Source of the DNA: an uncultured Eubacteriales bacterium
GTDB lineage: Bacteria > Bacillota > Clostridia > Christensenellales > CAG-138
DNA length: 64,000 nt
Direction: 5' to 3'
NCBI GenBank assembly: GCA_900544555.1
Contig: UQWD01000008.1
Span: 14,021-78,020 of the forward strand
The position numbers were made by a program, and so were the translations under genes. The notes below the pieces were generated by a model that was given only the letters and a program-made list of their open reading frames with translations, had not been told where the DNA came from and did no database searches. Positions 1 through 8,927 of this stretch are shown piece by piece. The first letter of the stretch is position 1; each line of letters starts with the position of its first letter.

Positions 1-939
1 AAGAACGCGGGGAAAACGACAGCGCTCAACCGACTGATTGAGGAGCACCGGTATAATGAAGGCGTTTTGGCGCTCACGTCCATCGGCAGGGACGGGGAAA
101 ATGTGGATATTGTTACGCACACAAACAAACCGGGCATTTTTATTTATGAAAACACGCTTATCGCCACCGCTCAGGGGCTTTTGAGGTATTGCGACGCTAC
201 GCGCGAGATACTCGAAACTACTGGAATGAACACGCCCCTGGGCGAAGTCGTCATCCTGCGCGCTCTGAGCGACGGCAGCGTGCAAATAGCGGGGCCGTCC
301 ATGACGGAACAGCTAAAGCGGGCGGCCGATATGTTTTTTACACTGGGCGCGGACCGCGTGATTATCGACGGGGCGGTGAGCCGCAAATCGCTTTGCGCGC
401 CCGCCGTGGCGGACGGTACTATTTTATGCACCGGCGCTTCCTACAGCAAAAGCATGATTGCGGTCGCGGAGGATACTGCGTTTGCCGCCGAGCTTTTAAC
501 GCTTCAACATACGGCGTTCGATTTAGGCTTTGAGACTCCGGCGCGTATAACCGTGACGACGGAGGATGGAGAATATATCCCGCTTACACAAAACGATACC
601 CTGCCTGAAATTATGAAGAAGCTCCCTGGCGTATCGGGCGTATGGCTTCGCGGGGCGCTCACGGAATCCTCGCTCGCCGCGCTTTTGCGCGCGGGCGTGT
701 CTATGGAAGGGGTTGAAATCATCGTTGAGGACGCGTCCAAGCTATTAATAACGAAGGAAACGTACCGAAAGCTTAGAGCGCGCGGAGGCCGTATCCGCGT
801 GAGGGAAAGCGCCTCCCTATGCGCCGTGACCGTCAACCCGTTTTCAGCCTACGGCTATCATTTTGATAAGGATGCGTTTATAGATGTTATGCGAAAGAGC
901 GTACAGGTTCCGGTAATAAACGTGATGGAGGAGCTATGA
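1..939 (+). CDS. Uncharacterised protein, C-terminal part (N-terminus upstream of window); translationally coupled to the MutS-like ATPase gene
   Basis: The frame is open from nt 1 (KNAGKTTALNRLIEE..., a possible Walker-A-like GKT at the window edge) to TGA at 937-939. The stop overlaps the next ATG (ATGA). No family recognised from sequence. Confidence 0.5.
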   Translation, partial: KNAGKTTALNRLIEEHRYNEGVLALTSIGRDGENVDIVTHTNKPGIFIYENTLIATAQGLLRYCDATREILETTGMNTPLGEVVILRALSDGSVQIAGPSMTEQLKRAADMFFTLGADRVIIDGAVSRKSLCAPAVADGTILCTGASYSKSMIAVAEDTAFAAELLTLQHTAFDLGFETPARITVTTEDGEYIPLTQNDTLPEIMKKLPGVSGVWLRGALTESSLAALLRAGVSMEGVEIIVEDASKLLITKETYRKLRARGGRIRVRESASLCAVTVNPFSAYGYHFDKDAFIDVMRKSVQVPVINVMEEL

Positions 940-2393
940 TTAAAATTGGTCACAGGCAGCGCGAAACGACGGGGTTTGATTTTATACTCGGAAAGCTTTC
1001 AGCCAATTCCCCGTACGGGAATGAAAGGATCCGGCGTATTCGCTTTTATTCCCCGCATGAGAAGCACGAGTTGGAGGAAGAGCTTTATAACGTAGGGCGC
1101 GCGGCTGATACGCTGGAAAGCTGCGCGCGAGAGTACGCGGCTGTCGAGCGGCAGATGATGGCGCTCAAGGACGTTAGAAGATCCATCGAACGATGCAGGG
1201 AGGGTGAGCTAGACGAGGTTGAGCTTTTTGAGATAAAGAGGTTCCTTCTTCAGCTCGAGATTATGGCGGAAGCGTATCGCCTCGTTCAGGAGCGCGCGGG
1301 ATTTGCCGGGATAAACATTGAACCCGTCCCGGGGGCGCTGCGCGCGCTTGATCCGGACGGGCGGCGTACGGCTTCCTTCTACGTGAGCGACGCGAAGCTG
1401 CCTCGCCTTCGCGAGATAAGAAGAAGAAAGCGCGAGCTGGAAGAGAAGATGCGCCTCGAGAGGGACGGCGCGCGGCGTGAAAAGCTTGCGCAGGAAAGGC
1501 TAACCGCGGCGGTTGAGGAAGAGGACGCGCAGAGGGAGGCGCTTTTTATGATGTGCGCCGACTTAAGGCCTTACCTTGACGATATAATGAACGCGGTGAA
1601 CGCCATTGGCAGGCTGGATTTTACCATATCGCGCGCAAAGCTGGCGGCGCGGTACGGGGCCTGCCTCCCAACTATGGATGGAGATAGACTGGCGCTTGAA
1701 CGGGCCGTACATCCGCTGTTTGTGGATGCGCTCAATAAAAAGGGCCGCGCTTTTACACCAATTTCAATCGAGATAGCGCCGGGCTCAACCGTTATTACGG
1801 GGGCGAATATGGGGGGGAAAAGCGTTGCGCTCAAAACCATCGCCGTTAACGCGCTGATGCTTCATGCGGGCATGTTCGTATTTGCTCAAAGCGCGAATAT
1901 CCCGCTGATGGAAGGCGTACACATCATATCGGAAGATTTAGAGAGCGCGCAGCGCGGCCTCTCCAGCTTCGGCGCGGAGATAATCCGGTTTAACCAGATA
2001 CTAGAACAGGTTGAGAGGGAAGCCGGCTCCCTTATTTTGCTGGATGAGTTCGCGCGCGGTACTAACCCGCACGAGGGCGCGCAGATAGCCGGCGCGGTTA
2101 CGCGTTATCTGAATAATCTGCCTGCCCTGAGCGTAATGACCACGCATTTCGACGGCGTTGCGGACAATGCCGGCGCGCACTATCAGGTTATCGGCCTGCG
2201 GGATATGGATTTGGCTGAGGCGGCCGCGCGGATATCTAAAGCGGAGCGCAGGGAGGAGGTCATCTCCCGCTATATGAATTACGGCCTTTACCGCGTAGCC
2301 GGCGAAAAAAGCTGCCCGCGGGACGCCTTAAATATCTGCCGCCTGCTCGATTTTAAGCCGGAAATACTGAAGATGCTGGAAAATATATATTGA
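936..2393 (+). CDS. MutS-family ATPase (lever/clamp-like coiled coil plus domain V only; no mismatch-binding or connector domain)
   Basis: Walker A GANMGGKSVALKT; MutS-type Walker B LLDEFARGTNPHEG; SSFGAE signature; 485 aa; start overlaps the upstream stop. Confidence 0.8.
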   Translation: MIKIGHRQRETTGFDFILGKLSANSPYGNERIRRIRFYSPHEKHELEEELYNVGRAADTLESCAREYAAVERQMMALKDVRRSIERCREGELDEVELFEIKRFLLQLEIMAEAYRLVQERAGFAGINIEPVPGALRALDPDGRRTASFYVSDAKLPRLREIRRRKRELEEKMRLERDGARREKLAQERLTAAVEEEDAQREALFMMCADLRPYLDDIMNAVNAIGRLDFTISRAKLAARYGACLPTMDGDRLALERAVHPLFVDALNKKGRAFTPISIEIAPGSTVITGANMGGKSVALKTIAVNALMLHAGMFVFAQSANIPLMEGVHIISEDLESAQRGLSSFGAEIIRFNQILEQVEREAGSLILLDEFARGTNPHEGAQIAGAVTRYLNNLPALSVMTTHFDGVADNAGAHYQVIGLRDMDLAEAAARISKAERREEVISRYMNYGLYRVAGEKSCPRDALNICRLLDFKPEILKMLENIY

Positions 2394-2418
2394 CAATAAT
2401 AAGACGGTAACTTATAAT
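2390..2418 (+). promoter_or_regulatory. Sigma-A type promoter, TTGACA-17 nt-TATAAT (the -35 overlaps the MutS-like stop codon)
   Basis: Exact consensus hexamers with a 17-nt spacer, seen directly; predicted TSS near 2425, just upstream of the riboswitch. Confidence 0.6.
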
Positions 2419-2451
2419 GAAACATGGTGAGATTGATAATTTTATATCGTT

Positions 2452-2712
2452 TTCTAGATAGAGGCGCGGGAAGCTTGGTAGCCGCCGGATGCAAAGGATA
2501 TGAGCGTCCAAGGGCGGCGGCGAATGGGCTTGCCGCCGAAAGCGGGCGGGCCGCTCACGCCCTCCGAGCTTGGGTACGGCGCTGAGCGCGCCGTAACTGT
2601 CATCGGTATGATGATGCGCTATTGACAGCGGGTTACCCTGCGTCAATAGCGTTTTATTTAGTCTGATGAGGCGCTATCACCTGTTTATCAACGGGTTGAG
2701 AGCGCCTTTTTT
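2452..2712 (+). promoter_or_regulatory. Lysine riboswitch (L-box) with ON-type expression platform
   Basis: P1 5' strand GATAGAGGCGC (2456-2468) pairs with 3' strand GCGCTATC (2671-2678). Internal CCGCCGAAAG and ACTGTCA...TTGACAG elements are present. The outer terminator stem GGCGCT (2670-2675)/AGCGCC (2701-2706) plus a T6 run (2707-2712) shares its 5' half with the P1 3' strand. Confidence 0.75.
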
Positions 2713-2748: not shown

Positions 2749-3141
2749 ATGAAATCTGTTATCCGAATGCGCATGGGCGCGAACGACGCTCATTACGGCG
2801 GCAATCTGGTGGACGGGGCGAAGATGCTCCAGCTTTTTGGCGACATCGCTACGGAGCTTCTCATTATGAACGACGGCGACGAGGGTTTATTTAAGGCTTA
2901 TGATATGGTGGAGTTTATGGCCCCCGTGTTTGCCGGGGATTATATTGAAGCGGCGGGCGAAATCGTTCACTGCGGCAATACCTCCCGAAAGATGGTGTTT
3001 GAGGCACGCAAGGTTATCGCGCCCAGGCCCGATATCAATGATACCGCGTGCGACGTGCTAAAGGATCCTATAATCGTTTGCCGCGCCTCCGGCACATGCG
3101 TAGTACCCGGGGATAAGCAGCGCGGGAAACAGACCGTTTAA
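2749..3141 (+). CDS. kal: 3-aminobutyryl-CoA ammonia-lyase (small hotdog-fold protein of the lysine pathway)
   Basis: 130 aa from the ATG at 2749, preceded by AAGGAGG; size and position in the kam/kdd/kce cluster. Confidence 0.65.
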
Positions 3142-3161
3142 CCGCGGAAAGGGGATTGGTT

Positions 3162-3983
3162 ATGGATAAGCTTATTATAACAGCCTGCATTTGCGGAGCG
3201 GAGGTCACCAAGGAACATAACCCGGCCGTACCGTATACCGTGACGGAGATAGCCGACGAGGCGTATAACGCGTATCAGGCGGGCGCTTCGATTATCCACC
3301 TGCACGTGAGAGAGGACGACGGTACCCCGACGCAGAGCGCGAGCCGATTTAAAGCATGCATGGAAGCGATTAAGGAGAAATGCCCGGATGTAATCATTCA
3401 GCCTTCCACCGGCGGCGCGGTCGGCATGTCGAATGATGAAAGGCTTCAGCCCATAACGCTGAACCCTGAAATGGCCACTCTCGACTGCGGAACGTGCAAT
3501 TTTGGCGGAGACGATATTTTTGTAAACACGGAAAACATGATTATAGACTTTGCCCAAAAAATGACGGCCCGCGGTATCAAGCCCGAGGTCGAGGTTTTTG
3601 ACAAGGGCATGATCGATATGGCCATCCGGCTCAATAAAAAGGGCTTTATCCCCTCGCCCATGCATTTTGACTTCGTGATGGGCGTTAACGGGGGCATCAG
3701 CGGGGATCCGCGGGATCTGGTGTTCATGCGCGGCAGCATTCCTGCCGATTGCACCTGGACGGTCGCCGGCGTAGGCCGGTTCGAGTTCCCAATGGCGGTC
3801 ATGGGCATTATCATGGGCGGGCATGTACGCGTAGGCTTTGAGGATAACGTATACCTTGAGAAGGGCGTGCTGGCCAAGAGCAACGGCGAGCTGGTGGAGA
3901 AGGTGGTCCGCCTGGCGCGCGAGCTGGGCAGGCCCGTAGCTACGCCCGAAGAAGCCAGAGCCATACTCGGCCTGAACAAATGA
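3162..3983 (+). CDS. kce: 3-keto-5-aminohexanoate cleavage enzyme (BKACE/DUF849 family)
   Basis: DKLIITAAICGAE N-terminus; TIM-barrel DUF849-like sequence; cluster context. Confidence 0.8.
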   Translation: MDKLIITACICGAEVTKEHNPAVPYTVTEIADEAYNAYQAGASIIHLHVREDDGTPTQSASRFKACMEAIKEKCPDVIIQPSTGGAVGMSNDERLQPITLNPEMATLDCGTCNFGGDDIFVNTENMIIDFAQKMTARGIKPEVEVFDKGMIDMAIRLNKKGFIPSPMHFDFVMGVNGGISGDPRDLVFMRGSIPADCTWTVAGVGRFEFPMAVMGIIMGGHVRVGFEDNVYLEKGVLAKSNGELVEKVVRLARELGRPVATPEEARAILGLNK

Positions 3984-4023: not shown

Positions 4024-5064
4024 ATGGCTATTAAAGGAAACAGGTACGGCGTACACCGCGTAATTGAACCTCAGGGCGTATTAACCCAGGCCGCGTATAA
4101 GATCGACAACGACATGACCAAGCGTTATTCCAACGAGATCATATGCGACGTGATTTCGCTCAACATTGATTCGGCTTCGTTCACACAGATTGAGGAGGCC
4201 TGCGAAAAGGATACCGAAAGGATTAAGGCGATGATCCTTTCAATTGTAAACGAGCGCGGCAAAATGCAGAACCCCGTCACCGGCTCCGGCGGCATGTTCA
4301 TCGGCAAAGTCGCCTATATCGGCGAGGATCTTAAGGACAGGGATCTCAAGGTGGGCGACAAAATCGCTTCGCTGGTGTCCCTTTCCATGACGCCGCTCAA
4401 GATTGTGGAAATTAAGGAAATTCATATGGATATCGACCGTGTGGACGTTGTCGCGCAGGCCGTATTGTTTGAGAGCGCCATTTACGCCAAGCTGCCGGAC
4501 GATATGAGCGAGGCGCTTGCCCTGGCCGCCCTTGACGTTGCGGGCGCGCCGGCCCAGGCCGCCAAGCTGGTAAAGCCAGGGGACTCCGTGCTGGTGCTGG
4601 GCGCGAACGGTAAATCCGGCATACTGTGCTGCTACGAGGCCATGAAGCGCGTTGGGCCCACCGGCCGGGTCGTCGGCCTTGTCCGCCGTGAGAGCCAGAT
4701 TGAAAAGCTGATGGAGCTGGGCGTATGCCACGAGGTCGTCGTTGCCTCCGCTACGGAGCCGGTAGCCGTGCTGGACAAAGCGCTCGCCGCCAACGCCGGG
4801 AAGGAATACGATCTTTCCATCTCCTGCGTAAACATTGAAAACACGGAGATGAGCTGCATACTGCCGGTCCGCGACGGCGGCACGGTGTACTTCTTCTCCA
4901 TGGCGACAAGCTTTACCAAGGCCGCCCTTGGCGCGGAAGGCGTGGGCAAGGACGTGAACATGATAATCGGCAACGGCTATACCCGGGATCATGCCGAAAT
5001 TACCCTGCACGAGCTGCGTGAGAGCGAAAAAATCCGCGATCTCTTCAACAGGATTTATGTTTGA
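4024..5064 (+). CDS. kdd: L-erythro-3,5-diaminohexanoate dehydrogenase
   Basis: Rossmann motif GANGKSG; 346 aa; cluster context. Confidence 0.8.
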   Translation: MAIKGNRYGVHRVIEPQGVLTQAAYKIDNDMTKRYSNEIICDVISLNIDSASFTQIEEACEKDTERIKAMILSIVNERGKMQNPVTGSGGMFIGKVAYIGEDLKDRDLKVGDKIASLVSLSMTPLKIVEIKEIHMDIDRVDVVAQAVLFESAIYAKLPDDMSEALALAALDVAGAPAQAAKLVKPGDSVLVLGANGKSGILCCYEAMKRVGPTGRVVGLVRRESQIEKLMELGVCHEVVVASATEPVAVLDKALAANAGKEYDLSISCVNIENTEMSCILPVRDGGTVYFFSMATSFTKAALGAEGVGKDVNMIIGNGYTRDHAEITLHELRESEKIRDLFNRIYV

Positions 5065-5292: not shown

Positions 5293-6552
5293 ATGATTAC
5301 GAGCAGAATGAACGGCCTGTTCCGCGACGTTCCGGATGAACAGTGGAACGACTGGCAATGGCAGGTTCAAAACCGCATTGAAACATTGGACGACTTGAAA
5401 AAATACTTGGATTTGACGCCCGAGGAGGAGGACGGCGTTAAGCGCTGCCTGAATGCGTTGCGCATGGCGATAACGCCGTATTACCTTTCGCTAATTGATT
5501 TAAAGGATCCAAAGGATCCTATCCGCCGGCAGGCCATACCCACCGCGCTGGAGCTGCATCAGGCAAACGCCGATCTGCTGGATCCGCTGCATGAGGATAC
5601 GGATTCGCCCGTTCCCGGCTTGACTCACCGTTATCCGGACAGGGTGCTGTTCCTCATCACCGACCAATGCTCCATGTATTGCCGCCATTGCACGCGCAGG
5701 CGCTTCGCCGGCCAAAACGACTGCGCCGTACCCAAATCACAGATTGACCGTTGCATCGGCTATATCAGAGAACACCCTGAGGTGCGCGACGTGCTTTTAT
5801 CCGGCGGGGACTGCCTCATGCAGTCGGATGGAATGCTGGAATACATCATCTCCAGCCTGAGGGAAATACCCCATGTGGAAATCGTGCGCCTTGGGTCGCG
5901 TACGCCGGTAGTAATGCCCCAGCGAATAACGCCCGAGCTGTGCGATATGCTCAAAAAATATCATCCCATTTGGCTCAACACGCATTTCAACCATCCGGCC
6001 GAAATTACGCAGGAAGCGGCCGCCGCGTGCGCGCGGCTGGCGGACGCGGGGATACCGCTGGGCAATCAGAGCGTGCTGCTTGCCGGGGTTAACGATTGCG
6101 TTCACGTGATGAAAAAGCTGGTTCAGGATCTGGTTCGGATAAGGGTGCGCCCCTATTACATTTATCAGTGCGACCTTTCAATGGGCCTCGAGCACTTCCG
6201 CACCCCGGTTTCAAAAGGGATTGAAATCATCGAGGCGCTGCGCGGCCATACTTCGGGATACGCCGTGCCCACGTTCGTTGTGGACGCGCCCGGCGGCGGA
6301 GGTAAAACGCCCGTTATGCCCAATTACGTAATCAGCCAGTCGCCCCATAAGGTGATACTGCGCAACTTTGAGGGCGTTATCACAACGTATACCGAACCGG
6401 ATCATTATGAGGAAACCTGCAACTGCGAGGTATGCAGGGGCGAGAAGAAGGCGGAGCTTATCGGCGTGGCCGGGCTTGAGCAGGGGCGGGCGATGTCCAT
6501 GGAGCCTAAGGACCTCGAGAGGACCAAGCGCGGCAGGCATAGGCCGGAGTGA
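5293..6552 (+). CDS. kamA: Lysine 2,3-aminomutase (radical SAM)
   Basis: CSMYCRHC radical-SAM cysteine triad; C-terminal CNCEVC; strong RBS GAGGAGG. Confidence 0.9.
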
Positions 6553-6582
6553 GCCGGATAGACGAAGGATTTGAGGTGGATA

Positions 6583-8142
6583 ATGCAGAGCAAACTGAAC
6601 TTAAATTTTAATTTGGTGGATAAAGCCAGGGAATCCGCCCGGCGTATAGCCGAGGATACGCAGTCGTTTATCGATATGCATACGACTGTAACGGTGGAGC
6701 GCGCCGTGTGCCGGCTGCTCGGCGTCGATAGCGTAAACGCGGTGGACGTTCCGCTGCCTAACGTGTTGGTGGACAGTCTTTTTGATAAAGGAGCGCTTGA
6801 TTCCGGCGCGGCGTACCATATCGGCAACGCAATGCTGGAAACCGGCATGGATCCGCAGCGGATAGCCGAGGCGGTGGACGCGAACGAGCTGGATCTTACG
6901 CGCCTCAAACCGCGTGAACCACGGGAGATTTACAGCGCCGTCAGGCCTGTGGCTCAGGCCGCGGCTCAACGCATACGCGCCAACGCCGCGCAGAGGGACG
7001 CGTATTTAAGCGAATTTGGCGATAAAGAGGGCCCGTATCTGTACGTTATCGTGGCGACGGGCAACATCTATGAGGATATCACGCAGGCCAAGGCGGCGGC
7101 CAAGCAGGGAGCGGACATCATCGCGGTTATCAGAACGACGGGCCAGAGCCTATTGGATTACGTACCCTACGGCGCGACGACGGAGGGCTTCGGCGGCACG
7201 TACGCCACGCAGGAAAACTTCAGGCTGATGCGCGCGGCGCTCGACGAGGTTGGGCGGGAGGAAAAGCGCTACATCCGCCTGTGCAATTACTGCTCCGGCC
7301 TCTGCATGCCCGAAATCGCGGCTATGGGCGCGCTTGAACGGCTTGACGTTATGCTCAACGACGCGCTCTACGGAATACTGTTCCGAGACATTAATATGCA
7401 GCGCACCATTATCGACCAGTATTTTTCGCGCGTAATCAACTCCTATGCCGGGGTTATCATCAATACGGGCGAGGACAATTACCTTACCACCGCCGATGCG
7501 GTGGAGGAAGCGCATACCGTGCTTGCTTCCCAATTCCTTAACGAGCAGTTCGCGCTTAAGGCCGGGCTGCCGGAGGAGCAGATGGGGTTGGGACACGCTT
7601 TTGAAATATCCCCGGATGTGGAGAACGGCTTTTTATACGAGTTGGCGCAGGCCCAGATGGCTAGGGAGATTTTCCCCAAAGCGCCGCTCAAATACATGCC
7701 GCCCACGAAGTTTATGACCGGAAACATCTTCCGCGGCCATGTGCAGGACGCGCTGTTTAATATGGTGACCATCCTTACGGGGCAGAAGCTGCATCTTTTA
7801 GGCATGCTTACGGAAGCTATACACACCCCGTTTATGAGCGACAGGGCGCTTGCCATTGAAAACGCCAAGTATATTTTCAGAACCATGCGCAGCCTTGGCG
7901 ATGAGCTGGTTTATAAGGAAGGCGGTATAATGCAGAGCCGCGCCGACGAGGTGCTGAACAAAGCGGCTCAACTGCTTGAGGAAATCGAGCATATGGGCCT
8001 GTTCGCCACCCTGGAGAAAGGGATTTTCGCCGACATTAAACGCATGCGTGACGGGGGCAAGGGGCTTTCCGGAGTTATACAAAAGAGCGCCGAATACTTT
8101 AACCCGTTCATCGAATTGATGAAAGGGGGTGCCAGCATATGA
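6583..8142 (+). CDS. kamD: Lysine 5,6-aminomutase alpha subunit (PLP/B12-dependent)
   Basis: MQSKLNLNFNLVDKA N-terminus typical of KamD; 519 aa; first ATG preceded by GAGGTGG. Confidence 0.85.
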   Translation: MQSKLNLNFNLVDKARESARRIAEDTQSFIDMHTTVTVERAVCRLLGVDSVNAVDVPLPNVLVDSLFDKGALDSGAAYHIGNAMLETGMDPQRIAEAVDANELDLTRLKPREPREIYSAVRPVAQAAAQRIRANAAQRDAYLSEFGDKEGPYLYVIVATGNIYEDITQAKAAAKQGADIIAVIRTTGQSLLDYVPYGATTEGFGGTYATQENFRLMRAALDEVGREEKRYIRLCNYCSGLCMPEIAAMGALERLDVMLNDALYGILFRDINMQRTIIDQYFSRVINSYAGVIINTGEDNYLTTADAVEEAHTVLASQFLNEQFALKAGLPEEQMGLGHAFEISPDVENGFLYELAQAQMAREIFPKAPLKYMPPTKFMTGNIFRGHVQDALFNMVTILTGQKLHLLGMLTEAIHTPFMSDRALAIENAKYIFRTMRSLGDELVYKEGGIMQSRADEVLNKAAQLLEEIEHMGLFATLEKGIFADIKRMRDGGKGLSGVIQKSAEYFNPFIELMKGGASI

Positions 8143-8927
8143 GTTCTGGCTTATATAATACATCCAAACAGGATTTTGATAAGAATTTGGATTTGAAGAA
8201 GCTGCGCGCCTACGGCGATACGATGAACGACGGAAAAATCCAGATGAGCTTTACCCTGCCTGTTAAGAACGATGAAAGAGGAGCGGAGGCGGCGCGGCAG
8301 CTCGCCAAGAAAATGGGCGTAACCGAGCCATCCGTCGCGTATAATGAAAGCCTGGACGCTCAGTTCACCTTTTACGTGGTTTACGGTTCATGCGCGCACA
8401 GCGTGGATTATACCGGGATACGCGTACAGGCAGTGGAGCAGGAAGTTATGGATATGGAGGAGATAAACGCGTATATCCGTGAGAACTTCGGCAGGAAAAT
8501 CGTCGTTGTGGGCGCGTCGACGGGTACAGACGCGCATACGGTCGGTATTGACGCAATCATGAACAGAAAAGGTTTCGCGGGCCATTACGGGTTGGAGCGT
8601 TATGAGATGATCGACGCGTACAACCTTGGCGCGCAGGTTCCGAACGAGGAGTTCATGCAAAAGGCGCTGGAGCTCAACGCTGATGTGCTGCTTGTTTCGC
8701 AAACGGTAACGCAAAAGGACGTGCATATACAGAATATGACGGAATTGGTTGAGCTGCTCGAGGCTGAAGGCGTCCGCGGCAGATTCATACTGATATGCGG
8801 CGGCGCGCGCGTTTCACATGAGCTCGCCAAGGAGCTGGGCTTTGACGCGGGGTTCGGGCCGCAGAAATTCGCAGGGGACGTCGCTACCTTTGCCGTTACG
8901 GAAATGGCGCGGCGCGGCATGAAATAA
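8139..8927 (+). CDS. kamE: Lysine 5,6-aminomutase beta subunit (B12-binding)
   Basis: DAHTVG (DxHxxG cobalamin-binding motif); ATGA overlap with kamD. Confidence 0.85.
   Translation: MSSGLYNTSKQDFDKNLDLKKLRAYGDTMNDGKIQMSFTLPVKNDERGAEAARQLAKKMGVTEPSVAYNESLDAQFTFYVVYGSCAHSVDYTGIRVQAVEQEVMDMEEINAYIRENFGRKIVVVGASTGTDAHTVGIDAIMNRKGFAGHYGLERYEMIDAYNLGAQVPNEEFMQKALELNADVLLVSQTVTQKDVHIQNMTELVELLEAEGVRGRFILICGGARVSHELAKELGFDAGFGPQKFAGDVATFAVTEMARRGMK

Follow-up and report, generated by a model that had tools for sequence, protein, structure and literature searches.

A kamB-kamC pair 5′ of a riboswitch-controlled lysine operon probably encodes the two-subunit reactivase of lysine 5,6-aminomutase

Here, we identify the two genes at the 5′ end of the 64,000-nucleotide stretch of DNA analysed (the window) as kamB and kamC, which very probably (we put the probability at roughly 0.85) encode the two-subunit, ATP-dependent reactivase of KamDE, the adenosylcobalamin- and PLP-dependent lysine 5,6-aminomutase. 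The initial annotation had already read the pair as a candidate ATP-dependent reactivase, and this reading is supported by NCBIfam equivalog models, by the gene neighbourhood across genomes and by the title of a 2024 paper. It had also described the role as proposed but not proven. This wording is out of date, given the names of the NCBIfam models and the title of Darbyshire and Wolthers (Biochemistry, 2024; as cited in PMC12633315), which announces such a reactivating factor. Because of these names and that paper, the reactivase hypothesis counts as established knowledge; the finding was already known, and the products of the window genes belong to the curated KamB and KamC families as ordinary members. 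The identity of E2, the activating protein of the classical enzyme, had been open since 1973 and would be answered by the kamBC pair, an answer that already stands in the 2024 literature and in the NCBI models. The window adds no new principle; the detail that it adds is a variant in gene order and regulation and the assignment of KamB to a fold. The KamB and KamC of F. nucleatum in the 2024 work reportedly co-purify and hydrolyse ATP. They are said to replace the hydroxocobalamin of inactivated 5,6-LAM with adenosylcobalamin and to be without action on ornithine 4,5-aminomutase. The lysine cluster of F. nucleatum had been drawn in 2011 with a "mutS" and a hypothetical protein (PMC3149608), and a search of the open-access literature for KamB or KamC by name gave no match.

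The pair lies at the very edge of the window (Table 1), where kamB is open in frame 1 from the first base and starts inside its own P-loop. An almost identical 20.7-kb contig (L001) reaches further upstream and encodes a full-length KamB of 331 aa and 36.0 kDa; because this contig shows the full gene, we can tell that only 19 kamB codons are missing from the window. The ATG of kamC (936-938) overlaps the TGA of kamB (937-939), with GGAGGAG at 926-932, an arrangement predicted to couple the translation of the two genes. Thus, the 485-aa reading frame, its two ATPase motifs and the ATGA coupling to the upstream gene, all described previously, were recovered. Further downstream, kal, kce, kdd and kamA match the NCBIfam equivalogs NF052388, NF052387, NF052381 and TIGR03820; the scores exceed the cut-off in each case, as they also do for the models of kamD and kamE. 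kamD lies ∼4.2 kb 3′ of kamC, and the kamD-kamE region encodes the Pfam domains Lys-AminoMut_A, OAM_dimer and B12-binding; 3′ of kamE follow genes for a crotonase and then a 3-hydroxybutyryl-CoA dehydrogenase. NCBIfam and Pfam thereby bear out all six genes of the kal-kce-kdd-kamA-kamDE cluster that had been placed 3′ of the pair.

Table 1. Coordinates of the kamB-kamC pair and of the lysine operon that follows it, in window positions
Feature	Position	Strand	Basis
kamB, 5′-truncated by the window edge; predicted SIMIBI-class P-loop NTPase subunit of the reactivase	1..939	+	
KamB P-loop KNAGKTT, within G-M-C-K-N-A-G-K-T-T	1..21	+	translation
ATGA, overlap of kamC start codon and kamB stop codon	936..939	+	sequence
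kamC, predicted MutS2-core-like ABC ATPase subunit of the reactivase, 485 aa, 54.6 kDa	936..2393	+	
KamC Walker A GANMGGKS	1800..1823	+	translation
KamC Walker B/MutS-type motif DEFARGT	2043..2063	+	translation
Consensus sigma-70 promoter TTGACA-17-TATAAT of the riboswitch-controlled lysine operon	2390..2418	+	12/12 matches
Lysine riboswitch aptamer, leader of kal-kce-kdd-kamA-kamDE	2451..2629	+	RF00168, 71.3 bits
kal	2749-3141	+	
kce	3156-3983	+	
kdd	4024-5064	+	
kamA	5293-6552	+	
kamD and kamE, predicted client enzyme of KamBC	6571..8927	+	NF052384, 931.5 bits; NF052385, 401.1 bits

Several lines of evidence support the assignment of KamC. First, KamC scores 483.6 bits over model positions 1-508 of NF052383 (release 20), a curated NCBIfam equivalog with a cut-off of 300 that is named "lysine 5,6-aminomutase reactivase ATPase KamC". 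Second, it carries intact motifs of a MutS-type ABC ATPase, i.e., GANMGGKS, DEFARGT, GLSSFGAE and TTHF. The Walker A, Walker B, S-x-F and T-H motifs are all present in 117/117 KamC sequences, GANM[GSA]GK[ST] is kept in each of the 117 orthologues examined, and D370, E371, T376 and N377 are conserved among orthologues at 95% or more. Third, MutS_V is the sole Pfam domain in KamC, and Smr, KOW and MutS_I to IV are absent by the same analysis, in agreement with the earlier description of a protein that lacks the mismatch-binding and connector domains. KamC also falls outside the MutS mismatch repair family, with 89 and 122 bits against TIGR01070 and NF003810, for which the cut-offs are 641.7 and 480.

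The nearest solved folds to KamC are MutS2 cores, including that of ribosome-bound Bacillus subtilis MutS2, and TIGR01069, the model for the recombination and ribosome-collision ATPase MutS2, gives 176.5 bits. Moreover, kamC adjoins sbcD and sbcC in one Bacteroidales clade. KamC could, on these grounds, be a MutS2-type protein that acts on nucleic acids or stalled ribosomes, in recombination control or ribosome rescue, and for which the position among lysine genes is incidental. We consider this extremely improbable. The score lies far under the mutS2 cut-off of 400 and stems only from model positions 238-453 of 790, whereas KamC as a whole has 485 residues; and KamC differs from MutS2 not only by having no KOW or Smr domain, and none of MutS_I to IV, but also in its obligate partner gene and genomic context, with the link to kamDE and the coupling to kamB both conserved across phyla. 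In addition, KamB and KamC are both acidic (the pI values of the two proteins are 6.2 and 5.6). Many public records of KamB and KamC proteins still bear the labels "DNA mismatch repair protein MutS", "MutS2" or "hypothetical".

The partner of KamC had previously been left as a protein of unknown family. It instead matches NF052386, a curated NCBIfam equivalog named "lysine 5,6-aminomutase reactivase subunit KamB", with 318 bits for the fragment in the window and 333.5 bits for the full-length protein of L001, against a cut-off of 210. KamB has an N-terminal P-loop NTPase domain; its motif K-N-x-G-K-T is at least 95% conserved, and the same holds for G17, K20, N21, K24 and T25 in 106 orthologues. 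KamB had no Pfam match at E-values up to 1, and a search for solved structures of KamB or KamC found none; KamB is a SIMIBI-class P-loop NTPase without a close solved relative. A comparison of the full-length partner with MutL and GlmL/ASKHA profiles, as the initial annotation had suggested, places it in neither group. KamB is without any Pfam match, the GlmL/MutL family included, and with a SIMIBI fold in place of ASKHA it was rejected both as a MutL (GHKL) and as a GlmL/ASKHA protein. GlmL (the "MutL" of glutamate mutase) and OraS are, like KamBC, accessory proteins encoded beside genes for B12 mutases; however, OraS, which affects the ATP response of KamDE, is a 121-residue subunit without an NTPase, unlike KamB.

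KamB shares its fold class with MeaB/MMAA, UreG and HypB, which invites the idea of a wider role for KamBC as a cobalamin or cofactor chaperone, engaged in cofactor loading or in escorting an adenosyltransferase, or serving KamA or other B12 enzymes besides KamDE. However, this likeness to the G3E chaperones is at the level of the fold class only, at 12-17% identity, and KamB gives no sequence-family match with the G3E motifs of the metallochaperones MeaB, UreG and HypB. From MeaB/MMAA, the G3E G-protein chaperone of methylmalonyl-CoA mutase, it differs further by an extra C-terminal α/β domain and by the need for KamC. Adenosylcobalamin synthetase activity was reported for isolated E2 (PMC3958899), kamBC mostly lies directly after kamA, and intact kamB and kamC also occur away from kamDE in Bacteroidales genomes, all of which would fit a broader function. 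Nevertheless, kamBC is paired with kamDE at nearly all loci, and we regard a general chaperone as distinctly unlikely and a reactivase of KamDE as the better reading.

The pairing with kamDE is evident from both sides, in answer to the neighbourhood comparison that the initial annotation had called for. In a KamC-anchored scan with one genome per species, 80 loci with KamC relatives were collected, 4 of which were too short to judge; kamD is within the flank in 64 of the 76 informative loci. A kamD-anchored metagenome scan yielded 80 loci. Counts were limited to the 26 whose flanks reach 7 kb or more on the upstream side and 2.5 kb or more on the downstream side: both kamB and kamC are present in 21, kamB alone in 1 and neither gene in 4. 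The two genes are also tightly spaced, overlapping in 30 of 51 adjacent pairs and lying 0-4 nt apart in 16 more (overlapping or abutting in 46/51), where the start codon nearest to the stop was chosen for counting. Around the KamC anchors, the usual order is kdd-kamA-kamB-kamC-kamD-kamE, and it is from the run kamA-kamB-kamC-kamD-kamE that the genes have their names. This order is seen in Clostridia, Tissierellia/Sedimentibacter, Peptostreptococcaceae, Bacteroidales, Riflebacteria and the Asgard archaeon Promethearchaeum syntrophicum MK-D1, and identity to orthologues from other families is 30-50%.

Some loci depart from this pattern. In 11 gut or rumen Bacteroidales loci, intact kamB and kamC occur with no kamDE within 10 kb, and 4 well-flanked kamDE loci are without kamBC; both sets speak against the reactivase reading. 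In the orphan Bacteroidales loci, kamB and kamC are split by a four-gene OmpA/T9SS insertion and adjoin sbcDC, and their products retain intact motifs and score 323 and 423 bits, above cut-off. In some Bacteroidota contigs, kamD and kamE occur by themselves, with no kamBC nearby, and between them lie a DUF362/ferredoxin gene and a gene for a 179-aa unknown protein. Finally, four contigs have the order kamA-kamB-kamD-kamE without kamC, and the KamB P-loop there reads KNVSKTT.

Classical lysine 5,6-aminomutase consists of the core enzyme E1 (KamDE) and an ATP-dependent activating protein, E2, of ∼80 kDa, and recombinant KamDE undergoes suicide inactivation (PMC3958899, PMC9081730). Both points speak for the need for a reactivase. 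OraS, the small subunit of ornithine aminomutase, binds KamDE and restores its ATP-dependent allosteric regulation in vitro (Tseng 2007, summarised in PMC3958899 and PMC9081730). With OraS able to do so, E2 as then defined may in part be a protein other than KamBC. Taken further, the classical ATP effect and the E2 fraction of Stadtman's enzyme would come from a protein such as OraS, and KamBC would not be the historical E2. The summed mass of KamB and KamC, 90.6 kDa, set against the ∼80 kDa of E2, points in this direction. E2 is described as a sulfhydryl protein, and neither across the KamB family nor across the KamC family did we find a conserved cysteine. However, the window contains no oraS/oraE paralogue, and kamDE co-occurs with kamBC and not with oraS. 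Moreover, the roles of OraS and KamBC are not mutually exclusive. We therefore think it unlikely that KamBC is not the historical E2, and retain KamBC as the reactivase of KamDE.

The expected job of KamBC has a precedent in other adenosylcobalamin enzymes. The reactivases of diol and glycerol dehydratases (DdrAB/PduGH, GdrAB) and EutA release damaged cobalamin from their suicide-inactivated adenosylcobalamin enzymes in an ATP-dependent manner. By analogy, KamBC would do the same for KamDE, and two subunits are common to these systems. Because the dehydratase reactivases and EutA have the Hsp70/ASKHA fold while KamC is of the ABC/MutS type and KamB of the SIMIBI type, KamBC is not homologous to them. 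Family membership, the intact ATPase site of KamC, the P-loop of KamB, the coupling of the two genes and their linkage to kamDE are established at the level of sequence. For the function of the pair, we suggest a model whereby KamDE inactivates itself during turnover, losing the adenosyl group and retaining an oxidised cobalamin that is still bound. KamB and KamC would then presumably form a complex that binds the dead KamDE holoenzyme through a contacting subunit, and the binding and hydrolysis of nucleotide by KamBC would prise KamE and KamD apart where the B12-binding domain of the former meets the barrel of the latter. Subsequently, the damaged cobalamin would be released and fresh adenosylcobalamin would rebind, such that cofactor is exchanged. 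Within this scheme, the MutS-type KamC probably works, like its relatives, as a dimeric clamp powered by ATP, and the SIMIBI subunit KamB may gate or time the exchange of the cofactor in the manner of MeaB, a division of labour that we infer.

The pair in the window resembles the curated KamB/KamC reactivase (NF052386, NF052383) in its scores, in the coupling of the two genes and in the linkage to kamDE and lysine fermentation genes. It differs in gene order, and in that it precedes a promoter and a riboswitch: kamBC lies 5′ of these elements and not between kamA and kamD. The same layout is found in L002, an Oscillospiraceae locus with a KamC identity of 50%, in L022 and in many contigs from human-gut metagenomes (e.g., L082, L085, L087 and L088), and each of these has a lysine riboswitch between kamC and kal. 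By contrast, at loci with the usual order (L003, L004 and L122) the riboswitch is 5′ of kal, and kamBC is within the operon that follows it. The position between kamA and kamD is the commoner one, and the position outside the riboswitch operon is a lineage-specific rearrangement.

The initial annotation had placed the pair outside the riboswitch-controlled transcript. The part of this claim that concerns transcription initiation holds, in that a promoter with a perfect consensus match lies in between; the −35 hexamer of this promoter overlaps the kamC stop codon, which leaves no space for a terminator between the two. Transcription from kamC may therefore continue into the leader of the riboswitch. 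On L001, we found no riboswitch or other RNA element 5′ of kamBC. To judge from these elements, kamBC is transcribed separately from the riboswitch-gated operon in the lineage of the window and should escape control by the lysine riboswitch, with a transcript that may extend into the riboswitch leader. Because kamBC lies 5′ of the riboswitch, the reactivase would be uncoupled from lysine sensing in this lineage.

Upstream of kamB, L001 contains a gene (7597-8526 of that contig, 309 aa) for a QueG/RdhA-like protein with two [4Fe-4S] clusters, which overlaps the start of kamB by 14 nt. This gene was rejected as a conserved third component, since none of the 160 other loci has a homologue. Homology to the DUF362 iron-sulfur gene that sits between kamD and kamE of L148 was likewise rejected, as the two align in the ferredoxin motifs only. 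One could imagine that, in an Oscillospiraceae-like gut lineage, the reactivase moved out of the riboswitch operon and came to be co-transcribed with a divergent QueG/reductive-dehalogenase-like iron-sulfur protein that may supply cobalamin reduction, such that repair capacity would precede the induction of the mutase by lysine; separately, the orphan kamBC of Bacteroidales may point to further clients. We consider this reading unlikely. The lineage with the gene order of the window is common in gut metagenomes, and the uncoupling of kamBC from the lysine riboswitch would be a small regulatory variation of relevance to butyrate production from lysine in the gut.

The reactivase genes kamB and kamC do not always accompany kamD and kamE, the genes of lysine 5,6-aminomutase. 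Two loci of 21.5 kb each (L084 and L156), both covered in full, carry complete kal-kce-kdd-kamA-kamD-kamE clusters, and the 10 kb to each side of kamD contain neither kamB nor kamC. Therefore, the reactivase genes are unlinked or absent in some organisms. Four further loci (L135, L140, L144 and L150) have the variant order kamA-kamB-kamD-kamE, and no kamC was found in their flanks. In the KamB proteins of these four loci, the P-loop reads KNVSKTT, i.e., a serine replaces the usual glycine before the lysine.

Gene arrangements at and around kam loci, with coordinates on the named locus
Feature	Locus	Coordinates	Remark
Gene for 309-aa protein with two [4Fe-4S] motifs	L001	7597-8526	Directly upstream of window base 1
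kamD and kamE with two intervening genes	L148; also L147, L155	9995-14189 (L148)	Bacteroidota contigs
kdd-kamA-kamB-kamC-kamD-kamE	L018	6614-13811	Promethearchaeum syntrophicum MK-D1 chromosome
kamB and kamC split by OmpA/T9SS-cargo insertion	e.g., L063	3863-11383	
kamA-kamB-kamD-kamE variant	e.g., L144	7641-13121	

The converse separation, kamB and kamC apart from kamDE, is found in gut and rumen Bacteroidales. At seven loci (L059, L063, L066, L069, L075, L077 and L080), a four-gene OmpA/T9SS-cargo insertion splits kamB from kamC; both genes have intact motifs, both score above the NCBIfam cut-offs, and the pair adjoins sbcD-sbcC, with neither kamDE nor any other lysine gene within 10 kb. At L072, kamB and kamC are neighbours but lie amid unrelated genes. 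On three Bacteroidota contigs, kamD and kamE are themselves separated by the genes for a 389-aa DUF362 protein, which carries a two-[4Fe-4S] ferredoxin domain as an insertion, and for a 179-aa protein that matches no known family; no kamBC or other lysine-pathway genes were found nearby. This arrangement may represent an alternative maintenance system.

The contiguous cluster with both reactivase genes extends to a cultured Asgard archaeon and related MAGs (L010, L012 and L016). The Asgard KamA and KamD share 66-68% identity with their bacterial counterparts here, a level that suggests acquisition from bacteria.

Where public protein records name KamC relatives at all, they use “DNA mismatch repair protein MutS”, “MutS2” or “hypothetical protein”; for relatives of KamB, the label is “hypothetical protein”. 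The reactivase assignment came after much of this annotation.

On L001, the nearly identical contig that extends upstream of the window (window base 1 corresponds to L001 8570), the start of kamB is overlapped by 14 nt by the gene for the 309-aa protein. This protein has a weak likeness to QueG and reductive dehalogenases (TIGR00276, 56 bits vs. a cut-off of 200), and its gene adjoins kamBC at none of the 160 other loci. Within the 800-nt gap 5' of this QueG-like gene, G+C-rich near-repeats with CAGCCGCA/CGAGCC units occupy L001 7230-7420, the minus strand of which would code for a Cys/Gly-rich peptide.

Between the lysine aptamer and kal, window positions 2616-2712 hold a pair of stable terminator-like hairpins, both with a U-run directly after them (MFE −58.4 kcal/mol, z −5.4); lysine should turn on a catabolic operon. 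One lysine fermentation cluster (L087) contains two lysine riboswitch aptamers, the first 5' of kal (5356-5530) and the second between kal and kce (6185-6361).
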